Shown here one piece after another: positions 5,660 through 10,634 of a stretch of DNA of 64,000 nucleotides; the first letter of the stretch is position 1, and every line of letters starts with the position of its first letter. Source of the DNA: Escherichia coli (GTDB lineage: Bacteria > Pseudomonadota > Gammaproteobacteria > Enterobacterales > Enterobacteriaceae); assembly GCF_030013205.1 (NCBI RefSeq), contig NZ_CP122648.1; one strand, 5' to 3'. A program made the translations under genes and the position numbers. The notes beneath the pieces are model-generated. The model was not told the DNA's origin and ran no database searches. It saw nothing but the letters and a program-made list of their open reading frames with translations.

Positions 5660-6709
5660 TTAGTGGTAGTTGATTTTAACTATCAGGTCTTTCTGAAATG
5701 GGCCATAGACGAGTGGTTCACCAGGTTTTTGGGTTAATTCGGCCTGGTAATCGCGGGTTGCCATTGCCGCACTCTGACCGGGAATATAAGTACTAAATAA
5801 TTTGAACTGGTTAAATTCAATATCTTCTTGCGTTTTTTGATCAGTAATTCGCATGAGCAAGCCGTTACCTATTTCCAGATGCGTATTGTCATATAATGTA
5901 TCTGAAGTAAAGAAACTGGTTGCAACATCAAACTGTTCGGTACAATCAGACGCAATGTCTTTTATGGTAGAAACGCTGAATGCTGCCTTCGGTGGGAAAG
6001 TTGCAATGGAATTCGCAGCGATCTGCCCAAAATTGACTATCTGACTTTCCGGGGAAATGCGGACGTCGACACTACAGTCAAGGAATGAAATATTATCTAA
6101 CCCCGTAATCGCATAGCGTAAATTTTTCGCGTTGGGGGCCATGTTCGCCCCGCCTTCACCGTCGAATTGCAGCACGTTGACTGTGCCAAAGTTTACCGTC
6201 TGATCTCCTGCCGGGCGGCTTTTGAATTTTACATAGACGCGAAAATGGGCGTTAAATGTTACATTTTTTTGAAGAGTGCTGCCATTGCATACAGGGTCAT
6301 GATAATACCCATTATAGTATTGTTCATATTTATCCAGGCACGCATGAGTATCAATTTTTTCATTTGTCCCTTCATAATCTACACCATTATAAGTCACGCC
6401 AAATGTTAAATACGGATTATTCAACATATCGGCACTATTTATTTGGGGCAATTTGATCCAGGCATAGACATTTTTTGATGGGTTATTACTTGACCATCCT
6501 GGTGCATTGTCACAATAAACTGTGATATTAATATCTCCGCTCTCCCAAATTTTTTGCCCAGGTTGCGCATTCTCTGGAATTTTGAACGTTGGTAAATCTC
6601 CATTTATGAGGGTTGCTCCTCTGTACCCATCCTGATAGCAATCAACAGCAAAAGCTGAAACGTTAAAAAAAAGGCAAAGAATCGCCAGTAGTCGAAAAAG
6701 TGTAATCAT
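5660..6709 (-). CDS. Fimbrial adhesin-like (tip) protein of a chaperone-usher operon, 349 aa
   Basis: Signal peptide (MITLFRLLAILCLFFNVSAFA), last gene of operon, start overlaps chaperone stop; size/position consistent with a Yqi-type adhesin (YqiI-like), not verified. Confidence 0.7.
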   Translation of the reverse strand: MITLFRLLAILCLFFNVSAFAVDCYQDGYRGATLINGDLPTFKIPENAQPGQKIWESGDINITVYCDNAPGWSSNNPSKNVYAWIKLPQINSADMLNNPYLTFGVTYNGVDYEGTNEKIDTHACLDKYEQYYNGYYHDPVCNGSTLQKNVTFNAHFRVYVKFKSRPAGDQTVNFGTVNVLQFDGEGGANMAPNAKNLRYAITGLDNISFLDCSVDVRISPESQIVNFGQIAANSIATFPPKAAFSVSTIKDIASDCTEQFDVATSFFTSDTLYDNTHLEIGNGLLMRITDQKTQEDIEFNQFKLFSTYIPGQSAAMATRDYQAELTQKPGEPLVYGPFQKDLIVKINYH

Positions 6710-7455
6710 ATTTTCCCCTTCTTCGCAGGAGTACTTTGGCAGAGGGACTGGACGGAATTACATACTACTTTAAACATCTCCAGCCCGCCGTAGTCCGCCA
6801 CAAAGCCTAACTGGAAGGTAGAGGGCAGGTTGTTTAAGTGTTGAGTCGCAGAAGCAAATGGTGCCACCATAATACTGTCCGCACCAGGCATCAGTGTCTT
6901 GCCATTAGTGCCGATATAGCCGACGGTAATATGATAAGGCGTCGGGTTATTCAGGGTCAGACCGACGGCGGTGCGGGTAATCGTCACTTTTTGCAGAGGA
7001 ACCATCTCCCCCTCTTTTAACTCAATCGCTTTTGGCCGCCAGAATAGCTTCAGACGGCTTTGCATGGCGATTTGCATGACATTCTGTTCTTTGGCACGCG
7101 GCGGAATTTCCCGCACGTTATAGTAGAATAGCGTTTCTCTGTCCTGTGGTAAGTTATTTAACGAGGCCAGCGCCATCAGGCGAATTTGTACCTGTTCATC
7201 AGGCTCAATACGTTCCATCGGCGGCAGTGTTGAAATGTAATCACGCGTTTTTTTACCGCTGGCATCTTCAATCCACGATTGAGCAAGATAAGGATCGATT
7301 TTACTTTGGTTGGTCAGGCGAACCGTTGCGCTTTTATTCGAAGCATTAAAAATGATGCGTGTCCTGTCGGGGGAGACAGTAGCCTGGGCAAAGTTGCAGA
7401 TCCCCAGAAAACAAATCATTCCTGTTGTGATTAATGGTAATTTCATTATATTCAT
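6706..7455 (-). CDS. Periplasmic fimbrial chaperone (PapD-like), 249 aa
   Basis: Signal peptide, typical chaperone N-domain pattern (RIIFNASNKSATVRLTN...); YqiH-like by size and position. Confidence 0.8.
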   Translation of the reverse strand: MNIMKLPLITTGMICFLGICNFAQATVSPDRTRIIFNASNKSATVRLTNQSKIDPYLAQSWIEDASGKKTRDYISTLPPMERIEPDEQVQIRLMALASLNNLPQDRETLFYYNVREIPPRAKEQNVMQIAMQSRLKLFWRPKAIELKEGEMVPLQKVTITRTAVGLTLNNPTPYHITVGYIGTNGKTLMPGADSIMVAPFASATQHLNNLPSTFQLGFVADYGGLEMFKVVCNSVQSLCQSTPAKKGKI

Positions 7456-7461
7456 CCTGAA

Positions 7462-10014: not shown

Positions 10015-10034
10015 GCCGATGAAATTTCATCGGC
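10015..10034 (-). terminator. Intra-operon stem-loop downstream of the major subunit gene (possible attenuator)
   Basis: GCCGATGA-AATT-TCATCGGC perfect 8-bp stem between subunit and usher genes. Confidence 0.4.
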
Positions 10035-10070
10035 TTTACCGCCTGACGTTGTGTAGTTACTAATTGCCGC

Positions 10071-10634
10071 TTACTTGTAGTCGAGTACGTAATTAGCTTG
10101 TGCCTGCACGTTACCTGGAGTCGCGGTGCGTCCCAGAGATTCCATACGGGCTTTAAAGTTCAACTCCTGGTAGGAGTTAGTCGTCGGGAAGTTGATAGTG
10201 ATTGGAGTGCCAAGAGTCACGTTGGTGTTGTCTGATTTCACCAGACGTACGCCTACATCAGTTGCGCCGCCGATGTTACCTTCCAGAGTGTTTTTAAGCA
10301 GGTTGGAATCGGTAGCGTCAACACTGGCAGAACTAAAGGTGATTTTGACTTTATCAACAGTGTTCGTGCCGTCAGATAAAATACAATCCTGCAAGTGAAT
10401 GGTGACATCTACAGGCAGAGATTTCTGACCGCTTTTTAATACGGTATCAGCAACTTCACCGAGGTTTATTGTCTGATCTTCATCACCAGGAGCAATAGAA
10501 CAAGGTGCATCGATAACTTCACCTTTAAAAGTAATTTTACCGGAACCCTGATTAGCATCGTCAGCAAGAGCGTTAAAAGCAACGCCTGATAACAATGCGG
10601 TTGCGAACATAGATAACAATGTTTTTTTAAACAT
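10071..10634 (-). CDS. Fimbrial major subunit-like protein, 187 aa
   Basis: Signal peptide, Cys pair (APCSI ... QDCIL), C-terminal donor-strand-like YVLDYK; first gene of operon; YgiL-like. Confidence 0.8.
   Translation of the reverse strand: MFKKTLLSMFATALLSGVAFNALADDANQGSGKITFKGEVIDAPCSIAPGDEDQTINLGEVADTVLKSGQKSLPVDVTIHLQDCILSDGTNTVDKVKITFSSASVDATDSNLLKNTLEGNIGGATDVGVRLVKSDNTNVTLGTPITINFPTTNSYQELNFKARMESLGRTATPGNVQAQANYVLDYK

Follow-up and report, generated by a model that had tools for sequence, protein, structure and literature searches.

The region at positions 5660-10634 of a 64,000-nucleotide stretch of Escherichia coli DNA (contig NZ_CP122648.1 of assembly GCF_030013205.1; the whole stretch is referred to here as the window) carries a chaperone-usher fimbrial operon. 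We identify it, with a probability of about 0.92, as the Yqi operon of extraintestinal pathogenic E. coli (ExPEC), also named ExPEC adhesin I (EA/I), a minimal four-gene system of the pi class located between ribB and yqiD. This operon is already known, as its sequence, classification, function and structure are on record.

Identity of the operon

The list of open reading frames (ORFs) and their translations contains, on the minus strand, four uninterrupted ORFs arranged head to tail in the order subunit, usher, chaperone and adhesin, which together span 4,975 bp (Table 1). None of the four ORFs contains a frameshift or an internal stop. A preliminary description, made from the letters of the window, had reported a chaperone-usher operon with this gene order and a continuous usher ORF of 840 codons. 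All three statements hold: the usher, chaperone and fimbrial subunit Pfam domains are present, the order is seen on the minus strand, and the usher is free of frameshifts, with the gene lengths of the operon equal to those in UTI89, in the sequence type (ST) 131 genome, in Nissle 1917 and in the annotation of ETEC1748, which is 100% identical. The usher exceeds the cut-off of each of its three Pfam models (PapC_N 128 bits, Usher 545 bits, PapC_C 47 bits), and the subunit scores 345 bits against the NCBIfam equivalog model NF007276, the cut-off of which is 189. The longest ORF of the chaperone begins at 7455, at an alternative upstream ATG, but the AGGA Shine-Dalgarno motif is suitably placed for the ATG at 7446, the start used by RefSeq as well. 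The stop codon of the chaperone gene and the start codon of the adhesin gene share four bases (ATGA). The adhesin comprises a signal peptide (residues 1-21), a lectin domain (about 22-211) and a pilin domain (about 214-349), with the C-terminal ~130 residues (221-348) giving a weak match to the Pfam Fimbrial model, at 21 bits and under the cut-off of 25.6. The operon is intact and real, and probably functional, as judged from the intact genes and from the orthologues.

Table 1. Positions of the operon, its elements and its neighbours in the window
Feature	Position	Strand	Remarks
Major fimbrial subunit, YgiL-like, 187 aa	10634-10071	-	Pfam Fimbrial, E 1e-23, 84.6 bits
Outer-membrane usher, 840 aa	9984-7462	-	Pfam PapC_N + Usher + PapC_C, full length
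PapD-like periplasmic chaperone, 246 aa	7446-6706	-	Pfam PapD_N + PapD_C
Two-domain tip adhesin (ExPEC adhesin I / Yqi), 349 aa	6709-5660	-	Lectin and pilin domains
Terminator-like hairpin in the 86-bp subunit-usher spacer	9998-10044	-	15-bp imperfect stem 10003-10044, then UUUU
Strong intrinsic terminator, bidirectional, where ribB and the adhesin gene converge	5628-5654		11-12-bp GC-rich stem, A- and T-runs at the flanks
Upstream region, presumed promoter/regulatory, common to the divergent yqiD	10635-11215	-	26.3% GC, ~580 bp
Variable segment carrying the operon, 5,492 bp	5605-11096		Replaces 145 bp of the ribB-yqiD spacer relative to operon-free O157
glgS	4039-4245
ubiK	4280-4579	-
ribB	4953-5606
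yqiD	11216-11386		Divergent from the operon
IS2 in the usher of ETEC1701	3105-4436 of the ETEC1701 locus		Equivalent to the window usher 7462-9984

The comparison with the Yqi operons of avian pathogenic E. coli (APEC) and uropathogenic E. coli, which the preliminary description had proposed as a check, gave 90-99.5% amino acid identity to UTI89, the same locus and the same length of 4,975 bp. Its assignment to the Yqi family is therefore borne out by the match of both the proteins and the locus to ExPEC Yqi. For the subunit, usher, chaperone and adhesin, the amino acid identities are 99.5, 98.3, 94.7 and 90.0% to UTI89 and 99.5, 98.6, 99.6 and 99.1% to Nissle 1917, respectively, and the adhesin is 78.8% identical to the ST131 allele. 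At the nucleotide level, the operon is 95.1% identical to that of UTI89, where four genes of equal lengths span 4,975 bp at the same site. The synteny glgS-ubiK-ribB-(adhesin, chaperone, usher, subunit)-yqiD-zupT is common to UTI89 and the window, and the placement between ribB and yqiD-zupT is also found in ST131, Nissle 1917 and AST240. The cluster of the APEC strain IMT5155 likewise measures 4,975 bp and is 100% identical in UTI89 and APEC O1 (Antao et al. 2009, PMC2771359).

Based on pairwise and profile scores, the usher appears to group with PapC and not with FimD, which would place it in the pi (Pap-like) clade. It scores 568.8 bits against PapC over residues 36-837 and 295 bits against FimD, whereas Caf1A yields fragments of at most 36 bits; the top NCBIfam usher models are StdB, PRK15284 and PRK15273. 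The chaperone scores 169 bits against PapD and 107 bits against FimC. PapD is its best relative of solved structure (E 1e-48), and both invariant residues of the PapD cleft are kept: Arg8 has its counterpart in R30 of the chaperone, and Lys112 in K133. The gene order had been described as unusual in the preliminary description, a view that has to be abandoned: because the usher and the chaperone are Pap-like, with PapC and PapD as their closest relatives, the position of the usher before the chaperone is normal here. That this is the Pap arrangement had already been remarked for this cluster (Antao et al. 2009, PMC2771359).

Residues 22-213 of the adhesin match the PDB entries 9RWU and 9RWV ('Pilus assembly protein') with an E-value of 1.6e-131 and two substitutions inside the domain. 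YqiI of K-12 matches the sister entry 9RWE (411 bits over residues 22-218), so that the lectin domains of both operon types have solved structures. More distant relatives of the lectin domain are found in 9RX0 and 9RWW (E about 1e-32). No paper describing 9RWU and the related entries was found in the literature search. With regard to function, a cloned cluster identical to that of UTI89 yields short fimbriae in AAEC189, and deletion of yqi reduces both adhesion and colonisation of the chicken lung (Antao et al. 2009, PMC2771359). The adhesive function, the glycan targets and the lectin structure of this operon are already on record.

Relation to the K-12 operon and distribution in the species

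The order and the protein sizes had previously been taken to match ygiL-yqiGHI of K-12. Order and sizes do agree, but the identity with the K-12 operon does not stand. In pairwise BLASTP comparisons, for which K-12 YqiG was reconstructed with its IS2 insertion sequence removed, the four proteins are 59.3, 54.6, 47.8 and 36.8% identical to YgiL, YqiG, YqiH and YqiI, respectively, and the nucleotide identity is about 65% where the operons can be aligned. The sites differ as well. In K-12 MG1655, ygiL-yqiG(IS2)-yqiH-yqiI lies between ubiK and glgS, and ribB adjoins yqiD. In the window, the genes follow each other as yqiK, yqiJ, glgS, ubiK, an FMN riboswitch, ribB, the operon, yqiD, zupT and ygiD; glgS and ubiK are direct neighbours with an empty spacer of 35 bp. 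A direct comparison places a 1,256-bp block from ubiK to ribB (97.5% identical) on one side of the fimbrial operon in the window and on the other side in K-12. Orthology with ygiL-yqiGHI was rejected on these grounds, namely 37-59% amino acid identity and a different site.

An alternative would be that the window holds the K-12 operon in its ancestral state, at the same locus and with an usher still free of IS2. The identical gene order, the similar sizes (187, 840, 246 and 349 residues, against 183, 834, 249 and 354 in K-12), the shared orientation within the same 10-kb neighbourhood and a 44-nt upstream block common to both operons all point that way, as does the subunit, which passes a model (NF007276) whose length of 183 is that of YgiL. 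We nevertheless consider this alternative hardly credible. The protein and nucleotide identities are too low, the site is ribB-yqiD and not glgS-ubiK, operons of the K-12 type form a separate population of about 3,360 genomes at 90-100% identity, and Yqi and Yqi-like are kept as separate types by Wurpel et al. 2013 (PMC3559732). The low identity to Yqi proteins that the preliminary description had named as fatal to its assignment is found for the K-12 proteins and is absent for the ExPEC proteins, so the assignment survives in its ExPEC form. Similarly, it is true that the usher is intact in the window and disrupted by IS2 in K-12, but this contrast spans two different, alternative operons.

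This agrees with the separation of 'Yqi', common in phylogroup B2, from 'Yqi-like', found in A, B1, D and E, the two being closely related, located at different positions and mutually exclusive (Wurpel et al. 2013, PMC3559732). Since the name Yqi covers different operons at different sites in K-12 and in ExPEC, the transfer of annotation between them is unsafe.

Some differences between the haplotypes were also observed in the neighbouring genes. The last ~18 residues of UbiK (window positions 4280-4348) are wholly different between the window haplotype and the K-12 haplotype, in which the protein ends in NRSTEIKKQPDPETLPPTL, and the C-terminal third of YqiD (11216-11386) diverges as well. The divergent 3' end of ubiK and yqiD both sit at junctions of the structural polymorphism. 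An unusual divergence of zupT from K-12 (85% identity) was dropped after a longer comparison, in which zupT is 97.2% identical overall and the divergence is limited to yqiD and the spacer.

The distribution was surveyed in 5,426 complete E. coli genomes. The operon of the window type is present in 993 of them, at 91-100% nucleotide identity, and megablast found the K-12 type in a distinct set of about 3,360 genomes, at 90-100% identity. The junction between glgS and ubiK is contiguous in 2,062 genomes and that between ribB and yqiD in 4,430. As the presence of both operons in one genome could not be excluded from these marginal counts, a chimeric probe was used that requires both operons for coverage; none of 5,425 genomes covered it. 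It follows from the junction counts and the lack of double carriers that about 1,070 genomes, for example O157, have neither operon. Three haplotypes are therefore observed: the operon at ribB-yqiD, the K-12 type at glgS-ubiK, and neither. The empty haplotype could be ancestral or could be the product of a crossover within the shared 1.26-kb ubiK-ribB block. It is doubtful, in our view, that selection maintains the exclusion of two operons located 1.3 kb apart, for example through harmful cross-talk of the closely related assembly machineries or of the regulatory regions, beyond what clonal history and recombination produce, and that the ExPEC-type allele in a porcine pathogen of phylogroup D is a functional intestinal colonisation factor gained by recombination. 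One of the 993 matches lies on a record labelled as a plasmid; this record may represent a wrongly assigned chromosomal contig.

Genomes of porcine enterotoxigenic E. coli (ETEC) and of O139:H1 match the window at 100% identity, both in the 6 kb that surround the operon and in another 24.5 kb. The ST1 strains of O139:H1 that cause edema disease have been typed as phylogroup D (PMC11052496), and a screen of 153 intestinal pathogens had not detected the adhesin gene in any of them (Antao et al. 2009, PMC2771359). A restriction of the operon to extraintestinal pathogenic (B2) strains does not hold, as it is identical in porcine ETEC and O139:H1. The restriction stated in 2009 is an epidemiological claim, and its correction is minor and does not amount to a discovery. 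Still, an adhesin named after ExPEC is intact in a porcine lineage of the enterotoxigenic or edema-disease type, so that it cannot serve as a clean marker of ExPEC. The discovery value of the present analysis is small, as the operon, its gene order and its relation to the K-12 locus were all recorded before.

In the sister strain ETEC1701, which is ~100% identical over the 6-kb query, an IS2 lies inside this usher and splits it into fragments of 843 bp and 1,686 bp. This event is independent of the IS2 in yqiG of K-12, which is located near codon 24. Farther along, at 11500-36000, the window includes genes for a TonB-dependent siderophore receptor, parE, ygiS, tolC and qseC, among others. This stretch is covered to at least 80% in only 1,868 of 5,425 genomes, and each of the best-matching genomes matches it at ~20 places, a pattern suggestive of variable gene content and of a repeated or insertion-sequence element.

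Origin, allele variation and regulatory elements

The variable segment that carries the operon has a GC content of 43.5%, compared to 50.7% for the window. The 145 bp that it replaces in the operon-free O157 locus (glgS-ubiK-ribB-yqiD-zupT) include the own terminator of ribB. A comparison of its borders with operon-free O157 and with K-12 revealed no target-site duplication, repeats, insertion sequence, integrase or tRNA. The low GC content, the patchy presence in 18% of the genomes and the single match on a plasmid-labelled record could be taken to indicate a mobile island acquired recently by means of an insertion sequence or a phage, instead of an old chromosomal haplotype. We judge such an origin very improbable. 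The borders lack an integrase, an insertion sequence, a tRNA and direct repeats, the replacement of 145 bp is not a clean insertion, the site is the same in every chromosomal carrier inspected, and the divergence between alleles, which reaches 9% overall and 25% in the adhesin gene, implies long residence.

Across lineages with the window-type operon, identity is 96-98% for the usher and subunit genes. The adhesin gene is 99.7% identical to that of Nissle 1917, 87% to that of UTI89 and 75% to that of ST131, and the upstream region is 98.8% identical to AST240, about 86-87% to Nissle, 86% to UTI89 and 74% to ST131. Based on these contrasting relatives of the adhesin gene and the upstream region, the alignments indicate that the operon is a mosaic. 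Variation is far greater in the adhesin gene and the promoter region than in the assembly genes, and the receptor specificity of one allele may not extend to others.

In the spacer between the subunit and usher genes, a perfect stem-loop had been noted at 10015-10034. It is real and exact, being the perfect 20-nt palindrome GCCGATGAAATTTCATCGGC, but it forms only the tip, with an 8-bp stem and a 4-nt loop, of a longer hairpin at 10003-10044. No other perfect 20-nt palindrome occurs in the 64-kb window, so that chance does not account for this one. In the ST131 allele, the loop AATT is replaced by TATG, the apical 8-bp stem is kept and the U-run is longer. A G-C pair of the basal helix is A-U in this allele, with both sides changed, which is one compensatory change among the four alleles. 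A hairpin of unrelated, GC-rich sequence (GGCCGGG-TTCG-CCCGGCC) occupies the same place between ygiL and yqiG of K-12. From the rarity of the palindrome and its conservation across alleles, we infer that the spacer hairpin may be a partial terminator or an mRNA-stabilising element that keeps the subunit in excess, the evidence for this role being modest. In the case of papA, such an element keeps the subunit in excess over the assembly machinery. The Ygi fimbriae of CFT073 (c3791-c3794, Spurbeck et al. 2011) are, as we believe in view of the gene tag in PMC5956150, the same operon. Upon induction of TosR in CFT073, the subunit gene c3791 was up by a log2 of 5.3, and the remaining genes of such operons were mostly unchanged or under the count cut-off (PMC5956150). 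A rise of c3791 with the other genes mostly flat fits polarity after the first gene.

At the other end of the operon, the bidirectional terminator has a folding energy of -21.4 kcal/mol (z = -5.5), and none of 200 shuffled sequences was as stable. The upstream region, in an alignment of four alleles and K-12, includes the 44-nt block at 10754-10797, which is 84% identical to the region upstream of ygiL in K-12. Silencing of the upstream region by H-NS is plausible given its base composition. A 17-bp perfect palindrome, AGATATATATTATATCT, is located on the minus strand at 10964-10980, ~330 bp upstream of the subunit start, and is identical in the four alleles compared, including that of ST131, the surroundings of which are only ~74% identical. 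Nearer to the subunit start, at 10701-10718 on the minus strand, there is a second inverted repeat, CTATGG-N6-CCATAG. The palindrome and the inverted repeat are possible candidate sites for regulators.

Proposed function and comparison with known fimbriae

According to standard chaperone-usher biology, the Sec system would export the subunits, which the chaperone would then bind by donor-strand complementation. The adhesin would be loaded first at the usher, and the major subunit would then be polymerised beneath it through donor-strand exchange, giving a short fibre with a glycan-binding lectin at its tip. Transcription would start in the upstream region of 26% GC, which is probably silenced by H-NS and dependent on a regulator. 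The hairpin after the subunit gene would stop most transcripts, leaving the subunit in excess over the usher, the chaperone and the adhesin, and the bidirectional terminator at 5628-5654 would end both the operon and ribB.

Most cryptic chaperone-usher operons of E. coli are silent in laboratory culture, and the present operon could be another one: intact but silenced under all normal conditions in the porcine lineage, drifting to loss and with no phenotype. This is in line with the 26% GC of the upstream region, which is typical of DNA bound by H-NS, with a cluster that has no regulator gene, with the IS2 in this usher in the sister genome and insertion sequences in other carriers (H50), and with the about 1,070 genomes that have no operon at either site. 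We regard this as unlikely, although it deserves serious weight. All four ORFs are full length and identical across several independent porcine genomes, the usher and the subunit are conserved at 97-99% between lineages whereas the adhesin has diversified, a picture that fits selection and not decay, and the orthologues give phenotypes in chickens (PMC2771359).

Several observations weigh against the identification as a working ExPEC Yqi operon. The adhesin is only 90% identical to the experimentally studied UTI89/IMT5155 allele, and the CFT073 side is represented by the comparison with Nissle 1917 and not by CFT073 itself. The whole 86-nt spacer folds no better than shuffled sequences (z = -1.4), the U-run of the hairpin is short (4-5 U), and among the four alleles its covariation amounts to a single change. 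A consensus scan of the upstream region gave 17 promoter-like sites compared to 13.9 in shuffled sequences, so that no promoter is assigned, and H-NS silencing is deduced from base composition alone. The IS2 in the usher of ETEC1701 indicates that the operon is dispensable in that lineage. Expression and fibre assembly in this strain are predicted from the genes and from their orthologues.

Compared with the described ExPEC adhesin I or Yqi (APEC IMT5155, UTI89 and CFT073; Antao et al. 2009, Day et al. 2021, Wurpel et al. 2013), the operon of the window exhibits an adhesin allele that differs from that of UTI89 by 35 residues, and its host belongs to a porcine lineage of the ETEC or edema-disease type and is not an ExPEC strain of B2. 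With the 'Yqi-like' operon ygiL-yqiG-yqiH-yqiI of K-12, it shares the pi-class architecture, the hairpin after the subunit gene and homologous lectin domains of the adhesin (9RWE versus 9RWU), whereas the K-12 usher is split by IS2 and the K-12 site is glgS-ubiK.

P (Pap) fimbriae also have the usher gene before the chaperone gene, the closest relatives of the usher and the chaperone (PapC and PapD), a two-domain tip adhesin and a stem-loop after the major subunit gene. In contrast to them, the operon lacks the papI and papB regulators as well as an adaptor, a terminator and minor subunits of the tip (PapH, PapK, PapE and PapF), its lectin domain is unrelated in sequence to PapG, and its locus is not on a pathogenicity island. 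The Std, Stf and Ste fimbriae of Salmonella provide the best NCBIfam models for the usher and the chaperone (StdB, 700 bits, and StdC, 189 bits). Nevertheless, these scores are far under the equivalog cut-offs of 1289 and 370, so these fimbriae are relatives of the operon and not its orthologues.

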